From an uncultured Clostridia bacterium (GTDB lineage: Bacteria; Bacillota; Clostridia; Christensenellales; DTU072), in assembly GCA_944372665.1 (NCBI GenBank), contig CALVZV010000048.1, positions 1-11,113 of the forward strand: a DNA stretch of 11,113 bases, given 5' to 3'. The stretch's first letter is position 1, and each line of letters begins with the position of its first letter. The position numbers and the translations under genes are program-made. The notes under the pieces are model-generated. The model made no database searches. It saw nothing but the letters and a program-made list of their open reading frames with translations, and had not been told where the DNA came from. Below are positions 123 through 11,031 of this stretch, one piece after another.

Positions 123-1460
123 TTATTTGTTTTCGTTCGTCTTTCCGTCGCCGGCGCTGTCGGCGGCGCTGTCGGCGGCGCTGTCGGGTTTGCTTACGCT
201 TATCTCGGTCAGTTTGCCGCTGCGGGTAAAATAGTTCTTTTTGATGAAGAACGTGGCTATGCCGGCCGCCGCGAATATTATCGCCAGCACCAGACCTGCC
301 GGCACCGAAGCGATCATGACCAACAGGCTTATGAATACCAGCACGCCCGTAATCGCGCAAAGCGCGATGAGCCTTTTGTTCTTTCCGGGTTCGGGCAGCG
401 TCTCTATCACGACAGGCTCGGCGGTCTTGACCAGCTCTTCGGCGGGCGCCGCGTTCTCGGTGCGTTCGGACACGCTTTCCTTATCCAGCTGCAGACGTTC
501 TTCGCTGTATTTTTCCATTCTTACCAGATAGCGTTTCAGCGCCAGATCTTTTTCGGCTTCCGTCAACGTCACGGGGAAATTGGGATATTTTTCGTGTATC
601 TCGGCTTTCTTTTTGTAGTTTTCCAGCGATAATCCCGCGATATCGTTCTCCATTTCCTTTTTCATTCTTTCGATCTGTAACGCATAAAACTGCTCCGTGA
701 TCGACTCGTACATATTGTCCGCAAAAGAAATGCTCTGAATATTCACGTCGGATATCTCGGCGCCGTATTTAGAGAGTTTTAGGTTCAGCGCGTCGGCGAG
801 AGCCTCTTTCAGCTCGCCGTATTCGGCGCTCAGTTTATAAAATCCGATCTGCTTGGAATCTATGAAATCCTGAAGCACGCGCCTGTATTCGGTATTGATC
901 AGGTCGAGTAACGCTTCCAGAGCGTCGGGCAGATTTACGGACGCTACCTTGACATCCAGAAACCCGAAAAATTTGCACGCATCGTTGAATTTTACGGAAA
1001 CGCGCATATTCGTCAGCAGCGACGCGGGGATGCGCAAATCGCGGTCGAAATAGTATACTTCCTCTCCTTTATGCGAAACGTAATTCAGTGTAAGCACGAG
1101 TTTGTTGTCCATGCTCTGTTTGAGTCTGAACTTGTCGCCCTTCCATTTTTCGGATGTATCCTCGAACCGCTTTAACAGATAAATCTGCGCTATTTCGTCG
1201 AAATACTGCGGTTCACTAAGATAAATGAAATTGGAATACTTTTTGGAAACGGCGTCTAAAAGTATTTTTTTGCCGAATTTATCGAGTTTGCCTACCCCGG
1301 CAAGCAGCGACGGCTTCTCGGCGATCGCCGCTTCCAGCGCCTGTTTTTCGTAAATATCGTCGTAGTTAATTTCGCCAACGGCTTTTTTGCCGGCTATCAA
1401 AGCCAATGTAATTTGTTTTACGTTTTCTGCTTTTTTGTCGTTTTTGCTTTGGATATCCAT
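123..1460 (-). CDS. SPFH/band-7-like membrane protein (YdjI/COG4260-like), 445 aa, with a C-terminal two-helix transmembrane hairpin and a DSAA-repeat tail
   Basis: ATG at 1460 is preceded by GGGAGGAG with a 6-nt spacer. The central region has an SPFH-type signature (…KLSKYGAEISDVNIQSISFADNMYESITEQFYALQIERM…). Two hydrophobic helices lie near the C-terminus (LIALCAITGVLVFISLLVMIASV / AGLVLAIIFAAAGIATFFI). The stop is TAA at 123-125. Family assignment is from motif recall, not a search. Confidence 0.6.
   Translation of the reverse strand: MDIQSKNDKKAENVKQITLALIAGKKAVGEINYDDIYEKQALEAAIAEKPSLLAGVGKLDKFGKKILLDAVSKKYSNFIYLSEPQYFDEIAQIYLLKRFEDTSEKWKGDKFRLKQSMDNKLVLTLNYVSHKGEEVYYFDRDLRIPASLLTNMRVSVKFNDACKFFGFLDVKVASVNLPDALEALLDLINTEYRRVLQDFIDSKQIGFYKLSAEYGELKEALADALNLKLSKYGAEISDVNIQSISFADNMYESITEQFYALQIERMKKEMENDIAGLSLENYKKKAEIHEKYPNFPVTLTEAEKDLALKRYLVRMEKYSEERLQLDKESVSERTENAAPAEELVKTAEPVVIETLPEPGKNKRLIALCAITGVLVFISLLVMIASVPAGLVLAIIFAAAGIATFFIKKNYFTRSGKLTEISVSKPDSAADSAADSAGDGKTNENK
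153..188 (-). repeat. 12-bp perfect tandem repeat (3 copies; ggcgctgtcggc x2, then ggcgctgtcggg) inside the 3' end of the SPFH-like CDS; encodes DSAA-DSAA-DSAG
   Basis: Direct reading: positions 153-164 and 165-176 are identical and 177-188 differs only at the last base. A partial fourth unit lies at 146-152. Confidence 0.9.
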
Positions 1461-1706: not shown

Positions 1707-1735
1707 ATTTTAATCCCGCGTTCAACAGATGTCAA
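1707..1735 (-). promoter_or_regulatory. Consensus sigma-A promoter (TTGACA-17-TAAAAT) for the zinc-ribbon/SPFH operon
   Basis: Minus strand reads gttgTTGACAtctgttgaacgcgggatTAAAATagattt. The -35 is the complement of 1730-1735 and the -10 is the complement of 1707-1712. The predicted TSS is ~30 nt upstream of the ATG at 1670. Confidence 0.6.
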
Positions 1736-1824: not shown

Positions 1825-3288
1825 TCACTCCGCTTTGTAATAAAGAATCTTGTCGCCCGTCCTGACGGGAAGCGTCATCGCGGGATTCATGCGCTTGAGC
1901 TCTTCTTCGTCGGAATTCAACGCTTTGGCTACCTCGAAAAGCCCTTCTCCGTCGCCTACGACGTAAAGACTTATCACCAGATCGTCGTCGGCGGGCTTGT
2001 CCGCTATCTCGACGACAGAGGCGAGATACTTTAATTCCTCTTTGGTTTCGGAATATACTGTCGAAACTATTTCGCCGGTGATTTCCACGGTCCCGCCCTG
2101 CCTGAGCCGCGCCGAATACTCCTGAACGGAGGCCGACACCATGACCGACGACGGGCATACGCCTTTGGCGGCGGTTTCGCTCCTGAACGGTATTTCCGCA
2201 TAAACGCGCACGGGCTTGCCGGAATCGTCCTCGCAGATGATTTCCGCACCTATGACTCCTTCGATAACGACGGGATCGGCAGCCGATACCCCCAAAGCGC
2301 ATATCGCGGGAGCGCCGAGCGCCGCTATGCTCCTGACGTTTTTGTCCTCGGATACGGCGGCGTTGCCGAAAAACTTTATCTTCTCGCTGATGCCGCATAC
2401 GTCGCAGGTCACCTCGGCAACTCCGTATTCCGCTTGTGTCACCTTGGTGCGCGAGTACGCGTCGGTGACTATCTCGGTTTCGACCTCGTTTATCGCATAG
2501 CCCGACACGCTTACGGCGGCTTCGACTTTTAGCTCTCCGCCAGATTCCGTCGGAGTGAACACCACGCCGGCGTTCACCTTTACGGGTAACGGGAACACCT
2601 TTGAGCTTTCCGTGACGCCCGGGGTCAGCAATTCTTCCTCGAACGGAGTACGCATCACGTATCCGAACATTTTTTTGTCGGATATGTACCTGACATATGT
2701 ATACAGAACGCCCCCTATTTTGGTTATATCTGTCGCTGTAGATACCGAATCAATCTTTATCGACGACTCGGTAAACACTACTTCGTCAACGCTTTCGTGT
2801 ACGAAATCACCGCCCTCGACGATAAATTCGCCGCCTTTTACCGGCTCTGCGACACATATCGGCGCGGTTTCCTTTTTCAGACACATGTTGTCCGCCGTAA
2901 ACGCGTTTTCGAATCCGGCGCTTTCTATCGCCACGCCGGACACTTCCAGCATGATGCGGACGCGGAGCTTTAACGTACCCACGAATTCCGTGGAAACGAC
3001 CCCCGCCTCGGCTATAACGAAGCCGGATTCGTTCAGAAAGGGCGCGGACAATCTGACCGTTTCCGTCCTGACGTCCTTGACTGAGGCAAGTCCGTCCGCG
3101 CAGGCATAAATTACGGCGTAATCTATCGTAGTGACGACGTCGGCTGCGCCCTGAGAGGGCGTAACGCTATCCACGCGCGCTTTTGCCTGAACGGAAACGA
3201 CCTCCTCCGCGTCGTTCAGTTCCATGTCAGTATCGACATAGGTCTGGACGGGCTGCAGTTTTTTGACAGTATCACATTTGACGTACAT
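1825..3288 (-). CDS. DUF3794-like repeat protein with C-terminal LysM domain (SipL/SpoVID-like sporulation protein), 487 aa
   Basis: ATG at 3288 is preceded by AGGGGG with a 7-nt spacer. The C-terminus YVVGDGEGLFEVAKALNSDEEELKRMNPAMTLPVRTGDKILY fits the LysM pattern (Y.V..GD.L..IA…L…N…L..G..L). The body is acidic and beta-rich with a repetitive V/E/T composition, typical of DUF3794 proteins. Sits immediately downstream of veg. Confidence 0.6.
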   Translation of the reverse strand: MYVKCDTVKKLQPVQTYVDTDMELNDAEEVVSVQAKARVDSVTPSQGAADVVTTIDYAVIYACADGLASVKDVRTETVRLSAPFLNESGFVIAEAGVVSTEFVGTLKLRVRIMLEVSGVAIESAGFENAFTADNMCLKKETAPICVAEPVKGGEFIVEGGDFVHESVDEVVFTESSIKIDSVSTATDITKIGGVLYTYVRYISDKKMFGYVMRTPFEEELLTPGVTESSKVFPLPVKVNAGVVFTPTESGGELKVEAAVSVSGYAINEVETEIVTDAYSRTKVTQAEYGVAEVTCDVCGISEKIKFFGNAAVSEDKNVRSIAALGAPAICALGVSAADPVVIEGVIGAEIICEDDSGKPVRVYAEIPFRSETAAKGVCPSSVMVSASVQEYSARLRQGGTVEITGEIVSTVYSETKEELKYLASVVEIADKPADDDLVISLYVVGDGEGLFEVAKALNSDEEELKRMNPAMTLPVRTGDKILYYKAE

Positions 3289-3353: not shown

Positions 3354-3641
3354 TTAAATTTTCCTTTTGAAAAACAGCACGTTTTTCGAAAGCACGTCCG
3401 CATAGCTGAAGCTCGAAAGCCCGCCGTCGGCGTGTCTTAACGTGAATACGTTGGGATAAGTGGCTTCGATCTCGCATTCCAGCCGCTCTATCCTGTTCCT
3501 TCCCCGGTTGATTTTTACGGTCAGCGGATAGCCTTTCAGCTTGTTCAGTCTGTCGATTGCAAAAGAGGTGTCGTTGATGTTTTGGTTGCTTCTCATAAGA
3601 GAAGTTTTACCCCGGAGACGATTTATAAACCTTTTCGGCAT
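3354..3641 (-). CDS. veg: Veg (DUF1021) family protein
   Basis: …IDRLNKLKGYPLTVKINRGRNRIERLECEIEATYPNVFTLRHADGGLSSFSYADVLSKNVLFF aligns to B. subtilis Veg (…[39 protein letters not shown]…SYSYADIL…). The start is ambiguous. The ATG at 3641 has no SD and abuts the ileS terminator. An internal ATG at 3596 would give an 80-aa product and is equally plausible. Confidence 0.85.
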   Translation of the reverse strand: MPKRFINRLRGKTSLMRSNQNINDTSFAIDRLNKLKGYPLTVKINRGRNRIERLECEIEATYPNVFTLRHADGGLSSFSYADVLSKNVLFFKRKI

Positions 3642-3643
3642 TA

Positions 3644-3668
3644 AAAAAGGCGCGCCGCCGCGCGCCTT
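3644..3668 (-). terminator. Candidate Rho-independent terminator for ileS (GGCGCGC-cgcc-GCGCGCC palindrome flanked by A/T runs)
   Basis: Plus strand has aaaaaa-GGCGCGC-cgcc-GCGCGCC-ttaaataaaat. On the minus strand the hairpin is followed by TTTTTTAA. Lies 23 nt after the ileS stop (3692-3694). Confidence 0.55.
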
Positions 3669-3691: not shown

Positions 3692-6600
3692 CTATCTGTT
3701 CACGGGCGCCAGCTTTACGGTGACGGTACGGTCCTGGATCGAGAACGACTGTTCCGCTTCAGGCGACTTTACGTCACCCGTTTCGCTTGCCAGAATATCG
3801 GCGGCGATCTTGTCGCGGTATTTTTCTATCGCTTGCAGCGCGAACTCGTCTTCGGTTTCGAACGACGCCACAATGCGTTGTTCGACGGCGAAGCCCGCTT
3901 CCTTTCTCATGACCTGGATAAGCCTTATCAATTCTCTTATAAAGCCTTCCGCGGCGAGTTCGTCGTCCAGTTCCGTATCCAGCGCAAGCGTGATCTCGGC
4001 GTCTTTGGCGACGACGAAATGCTCTTTGGGTCTGAAGTGGCGATCGAACAGATCGGCTCCCAGTCCGCTGAAGTCGCCGATGTCCACGCTGTCTGCGGCT
4101 ACGGCTTTGTCCAACGCGGCGAAGCCCGCATTGTCCAGCGAATCGACCAGCTTTTTAAGGCGCTGCGCTTCGCCTTTAAGCCTTGCGCCGGCAACCCTGA
4201 AATTGACGGTGAAATAAACGTCGTTGTATGCCGTTTCGTCGGCGGTAAAGCTAAGCTTTTTGACGTTGAGCTCCTCCTTTATCACGTCCGCCAGCGGCAA
4301 AGCGGCTTCCTTCACGCCGTCGGGAGCGGTGACAAACAGATTTTTCAAGGGCTGTTTGACCTTGATCTGCGCTTCGTTGCGCATACGCTGCGCGGCGGCG
4401 ATTATACGGCGCGCGGTCACGGTTTCTTCAAGCACCGTCTTGTCTTCGGGAATTTCAGCCGGGACGGGATAATCCGTCAGATGCACGGATTCGGGAGCGT
4501 CCTTTTCGATCTCGCGTACTGTGTTTTGATATATATAATCGGTTATAAAGGGCGTGATGGGCGCCATAATTCCGATAACCGACTTCAGCGCGAAATACAG
4601 CGAAGCGTACGCGTTCATCTGGTCGAGTTTGTCGGTCGATTTCCAGAATCGCTTACGGTTGATACGTATATACCAGTTGGATACGTCGTCCACGAACACT
4701 TCGAATTCCTTTATCAGGGCGGGATGACGGAAAGTATCCATGGCGTTACGCGCGAACTTAATAAATTCGTTGGTGCGCTGCAGCAGCCATTTGTCGGAAT
4801 GTTTCAGCGAAGCGTAATCGAGCTTGTGAGCCGCTATATCGGGGTTGTCGATGGAGGCGTACAGATTAAAGAAAACATATATGTTCCAGAATCCCAGTAT
4901 CTTTCTTCTGGCCTCGTCCGCAAGCGAATATCCGAAACGCACGTCCGAAGCGATAGGATTGGACATAAACAGATATCTGACTGTATCCGCGCCCATCTTT
5001 TCCGCCGCGTCGTCGAAACGGATCATATATCCCGTCTTGCTGAATTTGCCGCCGTCTTCCTTTATGACGCTGGAGTGCGCGACAACCTGTTTATAAGGCG
5101 CCTTGCCGGTCAGTGCGACCGACATGAACAGCAGCGAATAGAACCACAGTCTGATCTGCTCTTTCATCTCGATGACCAGGTCGGAGGGGAAATTGTTTTC
5201 GAAATACTCCTTGTCCTCGAAATATTTTTTGGTCGAGAACGGCGTAATGCCCGCGTCCAGCCAGCAGTCGCCCACTTCGGGGATCCTTTCGACCGGCTCT
5301 CCGCACTCTTCGCAGTGGATCCTGATCTTGTCTATATATGGTTTATGCAGATGCGGCACGCCGTCTATGTTGCCGTGCTCGCTGCGCATGATAAGCTCTT
5401 CCTTGCTGCCGATGACCGTAACGTGTCCGCACTTTTTGCAGACATAGAACGGCAGCGGCAAACCGTAGAAACGCTTGCGGCTTATATTCCAGTCGCCCAT
5501 ATTGTTCAGCCAGTCCAGCATCCTCTTTCCCGCATATTCGGGTTCCCATTTCACGGTTTTGGCTGCCTCAATCATCATCGGACGGATTTCGGAAGTGTCG
5601 ATGTTCCACTCGTCCACCAGTTTGAACACCACGGGAGTCTTGCACCTCCAGCACTTGGGATAGCTGTGGGTGTACATTTCGGTTTTGTACAGTTTGTTCT
5701 GCTTTTCGAGTTCGTTCACTACGTCGTCCACGAGGTCGGTGGTTTTCATGCCGCTGAAGCGGCCGAATCCCTCCGTGATTACGCCTTCGTCGTCTATGGG
5801 GCAGATAGCCGGAATACCGTTTTTCCTGCCCAGTTCGAAGTCCTCGGCGCCGCAGCCGGGAGCGATATGCACCACACCCGTGCCTTCCGTAGCGTCGACG
5901 TCCTCCCACGCGTAAATTTTATGAGTAAAGTTCTGAACTCCGAATCCGGGGAAGCAGGTCTCGTATTCCCTGCCCACCAGCTCGGCGCCCTTGAAAGGTT
6001 CTCCGACTTCGACGATGTCGCCCTTTAATTTTCCCAGGGCGTTCTTGCCGACGATGAGCGGCGAAGTATCGGACTTGACTTTCACGCGTACGTATTCGAT
6101 TTCGGGGTTTACCGCAAGCGCCGCGTTCGCGGTCAGAGTCCACGGGGTGGTCGTCCATAAAATTATCTTGTCTTCAGTTCCCTTCACGGGAAGCTTGGCA
6201 AATATCGACAGATGCTCCATTTCCGCATAGGAGCCGCTCATTTCGTGATCGGAAAGGCTGGTTCCGCAGCGCGGGCACCAGGGCATCGGACGATGCGATT
6301 TCTTTATCCAGCCGCGCTCGGCGCATACCTTCAGAAAATGCCATATCGACGTGATGTTCAGATCCGTGTTCGTGAAATAGCTGTGTTCCCAGTCCATCCA
6401 TTGTCCAAGACGCTTGGACTGTTCCGTGATGACGCCGGCGAATTTTTTTACGCGGTCCATGCACTTTTCGGTGAACCTGTCGACTCCGTAATTGACTATG
6501 TCGGATTTGACCTTGAATCCGAGGTCCTTTTCGGTTTCCACCTCCACCCACAGTCCCTGCGAGTCAAATCCGTTCTGGTACTGACAGGACTTGCCGAGCA

Positions 6601-6817
6601 TGGCGTTGTAGCGGATATACATATCCTTCATCGTCCTGCCCCAGGCGTGGTGTATGCCCATCGGATTGTTGGCGGTTATCGGTCCGTCCAAAAAGCGGAA
6701 GCGTTCGCCGTTCTCGTTCTTTTTGACGAGTTTTACAAAACAAGCGTTCTTTTCCCAGAACGCAAGCATCTGTTTTTCGATTTCGACAAAATCTGTTTTA
6801 GCGTTTTCCTTTCTCAT
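3692..6817 (-). CDS. ileS: Isoleucine--tRNA ligase, type 2 (eukaryote-like, no C-terminal zinc finger), ~1041 aa
   Basis: CP1 editing-domain signature WTTTPWTLTAN is specific to IleRS (LeuRS and ValRS have TTRP[DE]T). The IleRS-specific motif DWNISRKRFYGLPLP matches the DWCISRQRYWGVPIP-type consensus. The anticodon-binding WYIRINRKRFW motif is present. KFSKT stands in the KMSKS position and PMGIHHAWGRTMKD in the HIGH position. The start is set at ATG 6817 (MRKENAKTDFVEIEKQMLAFWEK…), the usual IleRS N-terminus. The six-frame-track ORF extends to 7165 but overlaps the divergent lipoprotein gene and has no start there. Confidence 0.9.
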   Translation of the reverse strand: MRKENAKTDFVEIEKQMLAFWEKNACFVKLVKKNENGERFRFLDGPITANNPMGIHHAWGRTMKDMYIRYNAMLGKSCQYQNGFDSQGLWVEVETEKDLGFKVKSDIVNYGVDRFTEKCMDRVKKFAGVITEQSKRLGQWMDWEHSYFTNTDLNITSIWHFLKVCAERGWIKKSHRPMPWCPRCGTSLSDHEMSGSYAEMEHLSIFAKLPVKGTEDKIILWTTTPWTLTANAALAVNPEIEYVRVKVKSDTSPLIVGKNALGKLKGDIVEVGEPFKGAELVGREYETCFPGFGVQNFTHKIYAWEDVDATEGTGVVHIAPGCGAEDFELGRKNGIPAICPIDDEGVITEGFGRFSGMKTTDLVDDVVNELEKQNKLYKTEMYTHSYPKCWRCKTPVVFKLVDEWNIDTSEIRPMMIEAAKTVKWEPEYAGKRMLDWLNNMGDWNISRKRFYGLPLPFYVCKKCGHVTVIGSKEELIMRSEHGNIDGVPHLHKPYIDKIRIHCEECGEPVERIPEVGDCWLDAGITPFSTKKYFEDKEYFENNFPSDLVIEMKEQIRLWFYSLLFMSVALTGKAPYKQVVAHSSVIKEDGGKFSKTGYMIRFDDAAEKMGADTVRYLFMSNPIASDVRFGYSLADEARRKILGFWNIYVFFNLYASIDNPDIAAHKLDYASLKHSDKWLLQRTNEFIKFARNAMDTFRHPALIKEFEVFVDDVSNWYIRINRKRFWKSTDKLDQMNAYASLYFALKSVIGIMAPITPFITDYIYQNTVREIEKDAPESVHLTDYPVPAEIPEDKTVLEETVTARRIIAAAQRMRNEAQIKVKQPLKNLFVTAPDGVKEAALPLADVIKEELNVKKLSFTADETAYNDVYFTVNFRVAGARLKGEAQRLKKLVDSLDNAGFAALDKAVAADSVDIGDFSGLGADLFDRHFRPKEHFVVAKDAEITLALDTELDDELAAEGFIRELIRLIQVMRKEAGFAVEQRIVASFETEDEFALQAIEKYRDKIAADILASETGDVKSPEAEQSFSIQDRTVTVKLAPVNR

Positions 6818-6911
6818 GCCGCCTATTTTAGCACATATAAAACGTAAAGTAAAATAATTTATATAATTTGCACGTTTTAAAGGGGCACGCCGCGCTCCGG
6901 AGTCAGATGCG

Positions 6912-6940
6912 TTGACAAAAAGCGCCGGAACGGATAAAAT
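6912..6940 (+). promoter_or_regulatory. Consensus sigma-A promoter TTGACA-17-TAAAAT directly abutting the lipoprotein ATG (leaderless geometry)
   Basis: ttgaca at 6912-6917, an exact 17-nt spacer, taaaat at 6935-6940, then atcagat ATG (6948). The -10 to ATG distance is 7 nt. Confidence 0.6.
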
Positions 6941-6947
6941 ATCAGAT

Positions 6948-7433
6948 ATGAAAAAATTTCTCGGCTTGGTTCTGATATGCGTGCTGTGCGTTTCCACGGC
7001 GTACCTCGCGCTTGCGTGCAAACGCTCCGAACCTTCCGACGGCGATATCGCCGAAACGGTCTGCGAACACGATTTCGTCGCCGCGGAAAGCGAGCTGAAC
7101 CGCCCCGCCACGCATACGTCCGAAGGCAGACAATACGTCGTTTGTTCTAAGTGCGGTTTTTCCAAACTCGAAATAATCCCGAAACTCGGCTATGAGTCCG
7201 GAGACAAAGCTCCCGAGTTCAATCCGCTTCTGGACGCTTACGAAGGCGTGCCCGCCCGGACGACCTTTAAACAATTCACGGAAAAATACCTTCCTTCGGG
7301 CTGGGCGTTTAAAAACGAAGACGCCGGCGCCGCGATCGCCGACGGCGAATACCTGCTCGTCTTTACCCCGACGACGGAAGGATATACGCCTTTCGAATCT
7401 ACGGTCACGATAAAAACAAGGAGTCCGGAATGA
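6948..7433 (+). CDS. Putative lipoprotein (signal peptide MKKFLGLVLICVLCVSTAYLALA|C), 161 aa
   Basis: N-terminal K-rich n-region, hydrophobic core, and a Cys after …LALA (lipobox-like). The stop TGA overlaps the next ATG in an ATGA arrangement. The upstream TTG at 6912 used by the ORF track is the promoter -35 itself, so the ATG at 6948 is preferred. Confidence 0.65.
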   Translation: MKKFLGLVLICVLCVSTAYLALACKRSEPSDGDIAETVCEHDFVAAESELNRPATHTSEGRQYVVCSKCGFSKLEIIPKLGYESGDKAPEFNPLLDAYEGVPARTTFKQFTEKYLPSGWAFKNEDAGAAIADGEYLLVFTPTTEGYTPFESTVTIKTRSPE

Positions 7434-8236
7434 AACTTCCATCTGGCAAAACGGTTGTGATAACCGGCGCTACCGCCGGTATAGGCAAAGCGCTCCGCGA
7501 ACTTTACGAAAAAGCGGGGAACGTCGTCGTCAATATTTCCAGGCACGCTCCCGAAAGTTTGTCGGATTATGCCGCCGACATCGCCGACCGCGAAAGAATC
7601 GAGGCGATAGTCGAGGACATAGGCAAGCGTTTCGGAAAGATCGATATATTGATCAACAACGCGGGATACGGACAATCGGGTCCCCTGGAGCTGATTCCGG
7701 ATACCGAAATCAGAAAGATCACGGACGTCAATTTCTTGGGAGCGGTATGGCTGACGCGCGCGGCGATAAAGCATATGCCGCCCGGATCCGTCATCGGTTA
7801 CGTGTGCTCCGTCGGCAGCATAATCCCCATGCCCTACCGCACCATGTACGCGGCTACAAAAGCCGCTTTGGGCAGTACGGCTTTCGGGATGCGAATGGAG
7901 CTAAAGCCTTTGGGCATCAAGGTATGCGCACTTTACGTCGCGGCGGTCAAGACCGATTTCGCCGCACACCGCGAAAAAATACAGGTCAGCGAAGGGAAGT
8001 ATTTCAAGGCTTTATCGGGAACGGACAGATTTATCGACGACAAAGGCGGCAAGAACGCGACGGGAAAACTTACGCCGGAAAGCGCGGCGATCAAAATGGC
8101 TAAAGCGCTGGCGCGGAAACGTCCTAAAGCCGAAAAGCTTATAGCCACTCCGGCATATTTTATGATATATCCTCTGGCGAAATTCTCCCCCGGACTCGCC
8201 ATTTCGATAATCGAAAAGGTTTTCGGTGCACGCTGA
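7430..8236 (+). CDS. SDR family NAD(P)-dependent oxidoreductase (classical short-chain dehydrogenase), 268 aa
   Basis: TGATAGIGKA (TGxxxGxG cofactor motif), NNAG, and YAATKAA (catalytic YxxxK). AAGGAG SD 7 nt upstream of the ATG. Translationally coupled to the lipoprotein gene via the ATGA overlap. Confidence 0.9.
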   Translation: MKLPSGKTVVITGATAGIGKALRELYEKAGNVVVNISRHAPESLSDYAADIADRERIEAIVEDIGKRFGKIDILINNAGYGQSGPLELIPDTEIRKITDVNFLGAVWLTRAAIKHMPPGSVIGYVCSVGSIIPMPYRTMYAATKAALGSTAFGMRMELKPLGIKVCALYVAAVKTDFAAHREKIQVSEGKYFKALSGTDRFIDDKGGKNATGKLTPESAAIKMAKALARKRPKAEKLIATPAYFMIYPLAKFSPGLAISIIEKVFGAR

Positions 8237-8250
8237 AAACGCGCATCCTC

Positions 8251-8290
8251 AAAAAAACCCGCCTCCGGGCGGGTTTTGAATTTATTTTTT
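8251..8290. terminator. Bidirectional Rho-independent terminator shared by the convergent SDR (+) and 8282-9025 (-) genes
   Basis: aaaaaaa-CCCGCC-tccg-GGCGGG-ttttgaatttatttttt: a GC stem with an A-run on one side and T-runs on the other. Confidence 0.8.
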
Positions 8291-9025
8291 CTTTTTCGCT
8301 TCTTTTTCCGCTGCGATGCTTTTTTCCAGATATTCGCCTAAAGCCGTCATCTTCTCCTCAAGATAGCATGTTATGCGCTCAGTTTCCTGTTTCAGGGGCG
8401 CTTCGGGGTCGAATACGGTAGGCTCGCCCATCACCACGCGGCGCGATTTCGGATCGCAATAGCTGGGATAGAATTTCAGTATCTTGCCGGTTTCTTTATA
8501 ATAATAGTACGCCGAGTACGCGAAACCGCGCTGAAAACGCTTTAAATACTTGTTCATCGGCGTATCTTTGGTTTCGGGCGTGATCATCACTTTATTGCCT
8601 TCTTTCAGCGCTTTTACGGTGGCGTTATACGTTTCCCTGACTCTAAGATCGTGCCACGCGGGAATGGTGTCATAGCTGACGAAATAGAGATTTATCAAAG
8701 GCATCAGGATATATGCCAGCGGCATCAGAAAGCCCAGCTTGGTTACTTTGGCAAGCACGTTCTTGAAATGGTCTATTCCGTCTTTATAAGTTCTGAGCTT
8801 GGCGTTCGACCAGAAATTGAGCTTGTCGCCGTAAAACAGCTCGTATGCGAACGGCGCCTGAAGCGTGGTGTGATTGCACAAGATTATGCATGGCTCGCTC
8901 GGCTTTTCCACCAGGAATTCAAACGTGGCTTTTCTGGCGAAAAAACCTATCGTCTTGTTCAAGCACGTAGCGAATTTACCGTATTTTCTTTTATTAAAGT
9001 TAAGTTTAGCCATCTGCACATACAA
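8282..9025 (-). CDS. Hypothetical protein with weak lysophospholipid-acyltransferase (PlsC/LPLAT)-like motifs, 247 aa
   Basis: CNHTT… loosely resembles the HX4D block but lacks the Asp. VMITPETKD loosely resembles FPEGTR. A hydrophobic segment (LGFLMPLAYILMPLINLYF) is present. No SD before either candidate ATG (9025 or 9013). Likely co-transcribed with the upstream cytidylate-kinase-like gene, since no terminator lies between them. Confidence 0.35.
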   Translation of the reverse strand: MYVQMAKLNFNKRKYGKFATCLNKTIGFFARKATFEFLVEKPSEPCIILCNHTTLQAPFAYELFYGDKLNFWSNAKLRTYKDGIDHFKNVLAKVTKLGFLMPLAYILMPLINLYFVSYDTIPAWHDLRVRETYNATVKALKEGNKVMITPETKDTPMNKYLKRFQRGFAYSAYYYYKETGKILKFYPSYCDPKSRRVVMGEPTVFDPEAPLKQETERITCYLEEKMTALGEYLEKSIAAEKEAKKKK

Positions 9026-9092: not shown

Positions 9093-9701
9093 TCAGGATT
9101 TATTTTCCTTGAACCACCCTTCCGCATAGGCTTTCAAGCCGTCGATCAGCTTGTCTATATCGGCTCCCGCCGTATTTACCATCAGATTATACCCGCGCCT
9201 GTCGCCCCAGCGTATCGGCGCAAACGTGTCGTGCGTTTTGCGTCTGCCGGCGTCTATCTGTCTGCATTTCCTCAATATCTGTCTGTCCGTCGCCTCGGGA
9301 TGCAGCTCGCCCCTTTCCCTGCACCTTCTGATTTTATGCTCGGGATCGGAATACACAAATATCTTCAGCGGATTCTTCTTGGCAAGAATGATATCGCCCA
9401 TGCGCCCCACGATAACGCAGTCGCGTTTTTCGCTCAGCGCGGTAATCACCTTATGCTGCGCCGCCAGCACGTCTATGGCGGGCTGATTTATCGAAAAACC
9501 GAAAGTCCGTCCGTAGTGGAAATTGAAACTGACCGCGCCGTCGGAAACCTTGTCTATGAAACCGGCGTCGTAATCGGTATGCCTGACGATCTCCTTGATG
9601 ATCTCGGAATCGTAATAAGCAAATCCCAGCGCTTCGGCGAGTTTTTTACCAAGCTCCCTGCCGCCGCTTGCAAATTCTCTGGATACGGTTATTATACGCA
9701 T
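9093..9701 (-). CDS. Cytidylate kinase-like family protein (PF13189-type P-loop NTPase), 202 aa
   Basis: MRIITVSREFASGGRELGKKLAEALGFAYYDSEII matches the Cytidylate_kin2 N-terminal signature (IItIgReyGSGGreigkkLAekLg.pyyD.eli). ATG at 9701 is preceded by GGGAGA with a 6-nt spacer. The six-frame-track ORF's TTG at 9716 is rejected in favour of this ATG. Confidence 0.75.
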   Translation of the reverse strand: MRIITVSREFASGGRELGKKLAEALGFAYYDSEIIKEIVRHTDYDAGFIDKVSDGAVSFNFHYGRTFGFSINQPAIDVLAAQHKVITALSEKRDCVIVGRMGDIILAKKNPLKIFVYSDPEHKIRRCRERGELHPEATDRQILRKCRQIDAGRRKTHDTFAPIRWGDRRGYNLMVNTAGADIDKLIDGLKAYAEGWFKENKS

Positions 9702-9849: not shown

Positions 9850-9878
9850 TTGAAATTTTTTTTCCGTGCATGTATAAT
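9850..9878 (+). promoter_or_regulatory. Strong sigma-A promoter TTGAAA-17-TATAAT for the membrane-protein gene
   Basis: ttgaaa at 9850-9855, an exact 17-nt spacer, tataat at 9873-9878 preceded by TG. ~38 nt upstream of the ATG at 9916. Confidence 0.65.
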
Positions 9879-9915
9879 AATTATATTGCAAAAATTTGTG
9901 AAACGGAGGTTTATA

Positions 9916-10442
9916 TGGCTAAAAGTAAAGCTACTTCTGTAAATACCCGCAACGATACCGTTATGGCGGCGCTGGCGTTTATAATCCTCGGCACCATTCT
10001 GGTAGCTGAAAAATCGCTTAATGTGTTAAAACTTGCCGTAATCGTGTTCGGCGTCGCGCTGCTCACCTTGGGTTTATTGGAACTCATAAACCGTAACCTG
10101 ATAGTCGGACTGGCGGAAATAATCGTGGGCGTCGCATTGATAATCATGGCGGCTCTGGTACCGGACATAGCGACGCTGGTGCTTGGAATAGCGCTGTGCC
10201 TTTACGCCATCTATTTCCTTATAATATATTGGAGCTCCCTGACCGGCGGCAAACTCACGCTCAGAAAGGTCATCATTATTCTGCTGATACTGTTCGCGTT
10301 TATTGCAGGCATCCTGCTGATAGTCGAATACTGTGTCGGCGTAGGCGCGGATCTGTGGATCTCCGCAGGCGCGTTCTCTCTGGGAGCAGGTGCTATGCTC
10401 ATTCTCAAGAAATTCGTTTCCGAAGTCAACAGCAAAAAATAA
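9916..10442 (+). CDS. Small polytopic membrane protein (about 5-6 short TM helices, internally repetitive; possibly DUF308/HdeD-like), 175 aa
   Basis: GGAGG SD 6 nt upstream of the ATG at 9916 (MAKSKATSVN…). The ORF-track start at 9870 lacks an SD. Successive ~20-aa hydrophobic segments are rich in small residues (G/A) and Ile/Leu/Val. Confidence 0.7.
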
Positions 10443-10549: not shown

Positions 10550-10741
10550 TACCCGACAAAGGCGCCGAACGGGTATTTTGACCGAAAACGCGGAAAAGAC
10601 GCTTAAAGCGCGCATGGATTTTTTGCACATTTTAACTACCTTATAAAATAAAAAAACGATAGAACTTCTATCGTAATTTTACCTATTTCGCCCGACAGAC
10701 GCGTTCGGTCTGTCTGTTCTATACTAGTGTGCAAAAAATCT
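10550..10741. repeat. Copy 1 of a ~192-bp tandemly duplicated non-coding module. Contains a 13-bp inverted repeat pair (GATTTTTTGCACA 10617-10629 / TGTGCAAAAAATC 10728-10740) enclosing two hairpins.
   Basis: Direct base-by-base comparison with 10840-11031: identical over 10550-10716, then 3 mismatches (10717, 10724, 10727), then identical to 10741. Internal palindromes: CGATAGAA-c-TTCTATCG (10657-10673) flanked by an A-run and a T-rich run; GACAGAC-gcgttcg-GTCTGTC (10694-10714); ACCCG-n14-CGGGT (10551-10574). Confidence 0.9.
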
Positions 10742-10839: not shown

Positions 10840-11031
10840 TACCCGACAAAGGCGCCGAACGGGTATTTTGACCGAAAACGCGGAAAAGACGCTTAAAGCG
10901 CGCATGGATTTTTTGCACATTTTAACTACCTTATAAAATAAAAAAACGATAGAACTTCTATCGTAATTTTACCTATTTCGCCCGACAGACGCGTTCGGTC
11001 TGTCTGCTCTATAATATTGTGCAAAAAATCT
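10840..11031. repeat. Copy 2 of the ~192-bp module (offset +290 bp), with the same 13-bp inverted repeat pair at 10907-10919 and 11018-11030
   Basis: See copy 1. 189 of 192 positions are identical. Sequence diverges immediately outside both ends. Confidence 0.9.

Follow-up and report, generated by a model that had tools for sequence, protein, structure and literature searches.

How is an essential tRNA synthetase gene expressed when its promoter leaves no room for a 5' leader? The question is raised by an 11,113-nt stretch of contig CALVZV010000048.1 from an uncultured Clostridia bacterium. Here ileS, the gene of an isoleucyl-tRNA synthetase (IleRS), and a gene for a predicted lipoprotein diverge from a spacer of 130 bp (6818-6947, between the two ATGs) that holds two sigma-70-type promoters back to back. 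The whole stretch is referred to as the window, all positions are counted in it, and L-numbers denote homologous loci of related genomes. From the sequence and its comparison across species we consider the mRNAs of ileS and of the lipoprotein gene to be probably both leaderless, with a probability of about 0.8; our confidence is higher for the lipoprotein gene and lower for ileS.

Promoters and start sites of the divergent spacer

The two genes and the elements between them are the following.

3692-6817, minus strand: ileS, type-2 isoleucyl-tRNA synthetase, 1041 aa
6824..6818, minus strand: aggcggc, the 7 nt from the ileS -10 hexamer to the ATG, without space for a leader or a Shine-Dalgarno (SD) sequence
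6835..6825, minus strand: extended -10 of ileS, TGTG-c-TAAAAT, with TGTG at 6835..6832, one base 5' of the hexamer at 6830..6825
6853..6848, minus strand: -35 hexamer TTTACT of ileS, 17 nt from the -10 hexamer
6854..6870, minus strand: A/T-rich stretch caaattatataaattat, directly 5' of the ileS -35, read from the sequence
6912-6917, plus strand: -35 hexamer TTGACA of the lipoprotein gene, 17 nt from the -10 hexamer
6935-6940, plus strand: -10 hexamer TAAAAT of the lipoprotein gene
6941-6947, plus strand: atcagat, the 7 nt from this -10 hexamer to the ATG
6948-7433, plus strand: predicted lipoprotein, 161 aa, first cistron of the plus-strand unit

All elements of the spacer that a sequence-only reading had described were present, with one coordinate to be corrected: the start codon of ileS is 6817..6815, not 6818-6820. 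As had been claimed, both -10 hexamers end 7 nt before the respective ATG, at 6817 (minus strand) for ileS and at 6948 (plus strand) for the lipoprotein gene. The hexamers of the lipoprotein-gene promoter agree with the consensus at 11 of 12 positions. The ileS promoter fits the Gram-positive sigma-A type with an extended -10, i.e. TRTG one base 5' of the -10 and a -35 at 17 nt, and the A/T-rich stretch upstream may be an UP element. Between 6500 and 7400 we found 3 promoter-like sites compared to 0.6 ± 0.7 in shuffled sequences; the whole window contained 19 compared to 9.9 ± 3.0, an approximately twofold excess.

Candidate regulatory sites in the spacer were discarded. It contains no CodY box, and the sole match in the window (729-743, 3 mismatches) is at chance level. 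As to inverted repeats considered as operators, I1 merely mirrors the two -10/ATG modules, and I2 is, by eye, not kept in L001.

SD sequences were assessed by the duplex energy with the anti-SD ACCUCCUUU and the distance to the start. Six window genes, namely those for the Band-7 protein, orf64, the SipL-like protein, a short-chain dehydrogenase (SDR), a cytidylate-kinase-like (CMK-like) protein and orf175, had duplexes of -7.4 to -10.8 kcal/mol located 3-6 nt before the ATG. The best duplex of ileS was -5.7 kcal/mol at a spacing of 0 nt, and that of the lipoprotein gene was -4.1 kcal/mol at 13 nt, which lies within its own promoter. The calculation thus bore out that neither start has a usable SD. 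Two leadered units in the same window are led by comparable promoters: TTGACA-17-TAAAAT at 1735..1707 is followed by a 31-nt stretch with GGAGG, and TTGAAA-17-TATAAT at 9850-9878 by GGAGG before the ATG at 9915.

Three further features delimit the transcription units.

3668..3647, minus strand: intrinsic terminator of ileS, 24 nt after the stop, a 9-pair stem (7 G-C) followed by TTTTTT
7430-8236, plus strand: SDR, second cistron after the lipoprotein gene, Pfam adh_short
8254-8277, plus strand: terminator ending the lipoprotein-SDR unit, a 10-pair stem with a T-rich tail

Because its terminator follows 24 nt after the stop, ileS is monocistronic. The ATG of the SDR overlaps the stop of the lipoprotein gene (ATGA). 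AAGGAG at 7418-7423 is a separate SD for this cistron; its duplex has -7.8 kcal/mol and ends 5 nt before the ATG.

Leadered and putatively leaderless relatives

The proposal that both mRNAs are leaderless received strong support from conservation across species, 13 for the lipoprotein gene and 5 for ileS. In the 13 species the start region of the lipoprotein gene reads TTGACA-17-TAAAAT-N6-ATG, with TATAAT or TACAAT as the -10 in two of them and N7 in the window, while the 12 orthologues have 6 nt between -10 and ATG. The -35 TTGACA is identical in 13/13 species. The mean frequency of the most common base was 1.00 for the -35 and 0.97 for the -10, compared to 0.50 for both the 17-nt spacer and the 6 nt before the ATG. 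Furthermore, the frame is closed 3 codons 5' of the ATG in ten orthologues (L001, L029, L003, L004, L008, L007, L034, L013, L033 and L039); thus, no alternative start codon is possible there. Gene calls in the ENA begin the lipoprotein at TTG 6912, the opening three bases of the -35 box, and yield 173 instead of 161 aa. Judged by this comparison, the promoter hexamers appear to be selected at a fixed distance of 6-7 nt from an ATG without SD, which is the signature of leaderless genes.

The predicted protein begins with MKK, a hydrophobic core and LALA, followed by Cys at residue 24, so that the signal peptide read from the translation is MKKFLGLVLICVLCVSTAYLALA|C. In most orthologues, too, a segment resembling a signal peptide is followed by a Cys; L003 and L004 look membrane-anchored instead. 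By its lipobox, identified by eye from the sequences, the 161-aa product is a predicted lipoprotein; it belongs to no Pfam or NCBIfam family. The homologues keep a CxH...NRPAT...EGR...CSxCG pattern, which looks like a small metal-binding ribbon. They adjoin ileS in many relatives in either orientation: in the window, L001 and L029 the gene is divergent from ileS and forms an operon with that of the SDR; in the other relatives compared (L002, L165, L003-L013) it is codirectional with ileS. The differing orientations imply that the region 5' of ileS was rearranged repeatedly.

The upstream regions of ileS were compared by anchoring on the -10 hexamer and fell into two states. In the leadered state, seen in 21/21 relatives examined with 67-83% identity, the stretch between TATAAT and the ATG measures 31-42 nt, 33-35 in most cases, and includes GGAG or GGAGG shortly 5' of the start codon. 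The leaderless state, TRTG-n-TAnAnT-N6/7-ATG with TAAAAT, TAAACT or TAATAT as the -10, was found in five species, i.e. the window, L001, L002, L165 and L029, the proteins of the latter four being 92, 85, 85 and 84% identical to that of the window. The five keep TRTG, the -10 and its spacing to the ATG, while their -35/-10 spacers differ (ttacgttttatatgtgc, tcccgcgcgcgatatgg, aggcgcgcgcgatatgg, gcgcgtgaaatttatgt); where the window has aggcggc, relatives have agcggc (N=6) or aggtggc (N=7). Besides the 5/5 members of this clade, the majority of the 13 leadered relatives closest to it also have TRTG. The ATG of ileS aligns with residue 1 in most of 80 homologous loci, and an in-frame stop precedes it by 4 codons in L002 and L165 and by 21 codons in L001 with no start codon between. 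In a neighbour-joining protein tree, a quick distance tree without support values, the five leaderless species form one clade nested among leadered lineages, which implies that the leader was lost once. In the simplest history, one deletion of about 28 nt would have taken out the leader together with its SD, so that the same promoter now abuts the ATG.

In a sister clade with leadered ileS (L006, L007, L013, L033, L034, L036 and L039) the -10 is flanked, within about 30 nt on either side, by an inverted repeat that is GC-rich and about 10 bp long, TTGTRCGYGC...GCRCGTACAA. L007 has a change on both arms. The repeat is absent from the clade of the window; in the sister clade it may be an operator for a regulator of ileS.

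A class of leaderless genes with this arrangement has been described in Firmicutes. In the genome survey of Zheng et al. 2011 (PMC3160421) TA-led genes are those in which TANNNT has its first T about 12 bp ahead of the start codon, and low-GC Firmicutes show, in addition, a peak of TG; leaderless genes were detected in 56 of 209 Firmicutes genomes, with a mean of 4.2% of genes. The first T of TAAAAT is 13 bp before both window ATGs and 12 bp in most orthologues (N=6), and the start codon is ATG both in the window and in all orthologues with this geometry. The assignment of ileS and the lipoprotein gene to the TA-led leaderless genes of Firmicutes is thus well supported by sequence features: position of TANNNT, lack of an SD and TG before the -10 are alike. 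Unlike our comparison, the survey did not include uncultured Christensenellales-like gut Clostridia, and it relied on a genome-wide signal rather than on gene-by-gene conservation. In addition, the ileS case is datable to a single loss of the leader.

For such genes, RNA polymerase with the primary sigma factor, sigma-A, would begin transcription at the A of each ATG or no more than 1-2 nt away from it. Counted from the hexamer, this A is base 7 with N=6 and base 8 with N=7, both of which are ordinary start distances. The monocistronic ileS mRNA and the joint mRNA of lipoprotein and SDR would then each begin with 5'-AUG. In the first cistrons the ribosome and the initiator tRNA would recognise the 5'-terminal AUG without SD pairing, and the SDR cistron downstream would still be translated via its own SD. 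Because no leader would be present, neither a T-box nor an attenuator nor masking of an SD would be possible, and the output of ileS would be set at the promoter. In B. subtilis, a +1A start renders a promoter sensitive to ATP/GTP pools under amino-acid starvation, and in Firmicutes promoters with +1A are favoured when GTP falls in the stringent response. Every leaderless mRNA has to begin with A. By analogy with B. subtilis, a +1A start could, speculatively, provide ileS with a starvation response without a T-box. Transcription start sites, ribosome mechanism and promoter-level control are what we infer from the arrangement of the sequence.

Several points weigh against leaderless mRNAs. The -35 of ileS, TTTACT, is weak with a 4/6 match, and with 7 nt after the -10 transcription could begin 1-2 nt before the A of the ATG. 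The ileS pattern derives from five fairly close species (83-92% identity), and its conservation could partly reflect recent shared ancestry. Moreover, Clostridia with mapped transcripts have few leaderless mRNAs, with 6 among the 5' UTRs (untranslated regions) from 1646 transcription start sites (TSSs) in C. difficile and 11 among about 1100 TSS-assigned open reading frames (ORFs) in Acetobacterium bakii. If leaders were present after all, both genes could be transcribed from promoters further upstream and have true 5' UTRs lacking an SD, with translation that is SD-independent but leader-dependent. If a weaker plus-strand site, TTAGCA-16-TAAAAT at 6828-6855, were used, the lipoprotein mRNA would carry about 90 nt of leader; the spacer is also A/T-rich. 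Yet, this does not explain why the hexamers and the distance of 6-7 nt are invariant in 13 and 5 species, respectively, while the surrounding bases drift; other genes of the window have clear SDs, and the ileS strand has no other promoter-like site between 6854 and the lipoprotein gene. We therefore regard upstream promoters as improbable.

A wrong assignment of the start codons, with the lipoprotein starting from TTG 6912 and ileS from an upstream GTG or TTG, is very improbable in our view. Such starts have been called in the ENA, with 173 aa for the lipoprotein and, in one relative (P0004), 1069 aa for IleRS, and the ileS frame of the window is open for about 124 codons 5' of the ATG. On the other hand, TTG 6912 is part of the invariant TTGACA, both frames are closed shortly upstream in the orthologues named above, the ileS ATG corresponds to residue 1 in most loci, and MKK, hydrophobic core and Cys 24 constitute a normal lipoprotein signal peptide. 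Scans with a consensus do give many false positives, about 10 per window being expected from shuffles, and one could argue that the hexamers are chance matches in A/T-rich DNA without function. However, the chance of a site ending 6-7 nt before a start is about 0.0017 per gene (19 sites in 22,226 strand positions), so that about 0.02 genes with this arrangement are expected among the roughly 10 genes of the window, compared to 2 observed. Because the conservation across species is also specific to the hexamers, we give chance hardly any credence. Taken together we favor the view that both genes have leaderless mRNAs.

T-box control and the type of IleRS

T-box control of ileS was reported for at least 29 of 34 Firmicutes (PMC2494555), and in Priestia megaterium both ileS genes have a T-box (10.1101/2022.02.09.479832). 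The sequence-only reading that there is no T-box in front of ileS was confirmed: the Rfam T-box model (RF00230) gave no match at E <= 10 in the whole window or in 6700-7500 alone, while L059, as a positive control, scored 110.5 bits. Likewise, there was no match to the T-box sequence (GGTGGTACCGCG-like) with up to 2 substitutions within 600 nt 5' of ileS. A T-box leader of about 200-300 nt would have no space in a 130-bp spacer with a promoter abutting the ATG. Since even the permissive scan gave no match, a T-box is ruled out for the window itself.

The relatives were screened in the same way. Among 153 related type-2 ileS loci with at least 350 nt of upstream sequence, Christensenellales and Oscillospirales MAGs included, a T-box motif was in the expected place in 2 (L059 and L140), and an Rfam scan of whole loci at the gathering threshold detected a T-box in 1 of 32 (L059); with a gathering score of 93 bits and a motif screen of up to 2 substitutions, strongly diverged T-boxes of distant loci could have escaped detection. 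The conclusion that this ileS is expressed unlike a canonical housekeeping ileS thus holds when the cultured Firmicutes are the standard (T-box in at least 29/34), but does not hold among relatives, where T-box absence is normal (2/153). Judged by these loci, what is specific to the small clade of the window is the loss of the short SD-bearing leader and not the missing T-box. The T-box ileS genes of Bacillus, Staphylococcus and P. megaterium (ileS1 and ileS2) encode the same essential enzyme, and ileS2 of P. megaterium is also of type 2. They differ in having a leader of 200-300 nt with specifier loop, T-box and terminator; here there is no leader and no Rfam match.

The IleRS of the window has the Pfam domains tRNA-synt_1, Anticodon_1 and DUF5915 (residues 845-1037) and matches the TIGR00392 ileS equivalog model with 732 bits compared to a cut-off of 621. 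Among structures it matched the 1032-aa chains 8c8u-8c9d and 1ile of T. thermophilus with 570-613 bits, compared to 288-306 bits for the 917-921-aa chains 8c9e, 8c9f and 1ffy. The former we take to be type 2 and the latter type 1, partly after PMC10485003. The class-I signature is GIHH instead of HXGH (residues 54-57; 6649-6660, minus strand). The G/AXHH motif is known only from IleRS2, where it is widespread in housekeeping enzymes and was shown to confer hyper-resistance to mupirocin; no IleRS1 with G/AXHH was found in nature (PMC10485003). The NCBIfam exception models for MupA and MupB scored 594 and 575 bits, far below their cut-offs of 1900. By these sequence matches the enzyme is assigned to IleRS2.

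An IleRS2 could be an auxiliary, horizontally acquired paralogue for mupirocin resistance, with a T-box-controlled housekeeping ileS1 elsewhere in the genome. The GXHH signature is linked to hyper-resistance, in Bacilli ileS2 always accompanies ileS1 (10.1101/2022.02.09.479832), and the sequence analysed comprises about 12 kb of the genome. Yet, we consider a paralogue unlikely. A veg / sipL-like / ispE-like neighbourhood of ileS is kept across the order, the tree sets the closest relatives (77-92% identity) apart from distant ones without a sign of recent transfer, and the low MupA/MupB scores and the wide occurrence of GXHH in housekeeping IleRS2 argue against a resistance gene. Furthermore, in bacteria outside Bacillaceae the housekeeping role generally falls to one gene standing alone, ileS1 or ileS2 (10.1101/2022.02.09.479832). 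Because of this rule, the order-wide synteny and the lack of a sign of recent transfer, the organism most likely has no IleRS besides this one, which is probably its resident housekeeping copy.

Neighbouring genes, known systems and meaning

The other genes of the window belong to a run of Firmicutes housekeeping and sporulation-type genes.

123-1460, minus strand: Band-7 protein
1825-3288, minus strand: SipL-like protein
about 3354-3596, minus strand: Veg
8282-9013, minus strand: 243-aa ORF
9093-9701, minus strand: CMK-like protein
9915-10442, plus strand: membrane protein, 175 aa (orf175)

The genomes nearest to the window are metagenome-assembled genomes (MAGs) of uncultured gut Clostridia, filed as Christensenellales or 'Candidatus Stercoripulliclostridium', and the window sequence is also present in two ENA assemblies (L161 and L162). 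These relatives, together with the Veg and SipL domains of the neighbouring genes, are in agreement with the Firmicutes origin that had been proposed from the sequence. A metagenome scan for closer relatives yielded a best match of 75% identity and added nothing to the clade.

The 243-aa ORF (start at 9013, minus strand) also lacks an SD, with a duplex of +0.9 kcal/mol, and no -10 hexamer was recognised abutting its ATG. Its orthologues have an SD in L167 and a 29-nt leader with a poor SD in L166. At the right end of the window a non-coding direct repeat of 192 nt occurs at 10550-10741 and 10840-11031 (98% identical, period 290 nt). Each copy contains, besides TTTGCA-16-TAAAAT, two hairpins, the first of them a 19-nt palindrome (ACGATAGAACTTCTATCGT); Rfam gave no convincing match and ARAGORN no tRNA gene. 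Two matches to the Gut-1 RNA above the gathering score (62 and 56 bits) lie 3' of ileS in L029 (6270-6343 and 6478-6549, minus strand); there is none in the window.

A third candidate family of leaderless genes was found just outside the window, beyond position 1. The gene of an IspE-like GHMP kinase (minus strand; 11141-11971 in L161) has TTGATT-17-TATAAT-N6-ATG without an SD, and the geometry TTGATT-17-TATAAT-N6/7-ATG occurs in at least 10 related species. Thus, within about 12 kb leaderless geometry is seen in no fewer than three unrelated gene families, one of them an essential tRNA synthetase. Of 42 sites counted before long ORFs in the close clade, 26 had a -10-to-ATG distance of 6-7 nt, where the distribution peaks sharply. 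When the promoter criteria were made strict, the numbers of sites at N=5-8 compared to N=20-50 were 8 and 8 in the close clade, 0 and 15 in a middle group, and 4 and 29 in a far group. These counts are suggestive of a heavier leaderless use in the close clade, but those of the close clade come mostly from one orthologous gene.

The mapped leaderless mRNAs of C. difficile and A. bakii likewise have sigma-A-type promoters and an ATG at the 5' end of the transcript, and the start codon of the A. bakii leaderless genes is ATG. They differ in frequency, being at most about 1% of the mapped starts, whereas here 2 of about 10 genes plus the third family are concerned, read from sequence alone. Divergent leaderless gene pairs are common in Actinobacteria. 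Those of Actinobacteria and Deinococcus resemble the window in their short spacers and in both -10 boxes abutting start codons. In contrast, 19-39% of the genes are leaderless in these GC-rich groups (PMC3160421), while the genome of the window is that of a Firmicute with about 50% GC and otherwise normal SD use.

Gene calling is affected as well. Gene callers start one IleRS orthologue (L163 1083) 29 codons early, giving 1069 aa, and the mis-started calls of leaderless genes look like a systematic error. Because callers mis-start these genes, leaderless genes are probably under-recognised in gut MAGs.

In a wider perspective, leaderless initiation may be far more common in this genus-level clade of uncultured gut Christensenellales than in the Firmicutes studied so far, and the whole order and its neighbours may have given up T-box control of ileS, which would imply another way to match the supply of IleRS to the charging of tRNA-Ile. 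We put this forward tentatively and consider it doubtful. Candidates for such an alternative would be promoter-level sensing of nucleotide pools via the obligatory +1A, and a repressor at the GC-rich inverted repeat around the -10 in the sister clade.

Our knowledge of how leaderless genes work is unchanged by these findings. The main points are the datable change of an essential synthetase gene from SD-led to leaderless initiation, a deeply conserved promoter of a lipoprotein gene, and the order-wide absence of the ileS T-box, so that the Firmicutes rule of a T-box-controlled ileS fails for large uncultured lineages of Clostridia. With apparently the same promoter followed by an SD leader of about 30 nt in one clade and by none in its sister clade, ileS constitutes a natural before-and-after pair that may be used to study the switch from SD-led to leaderless initiation.

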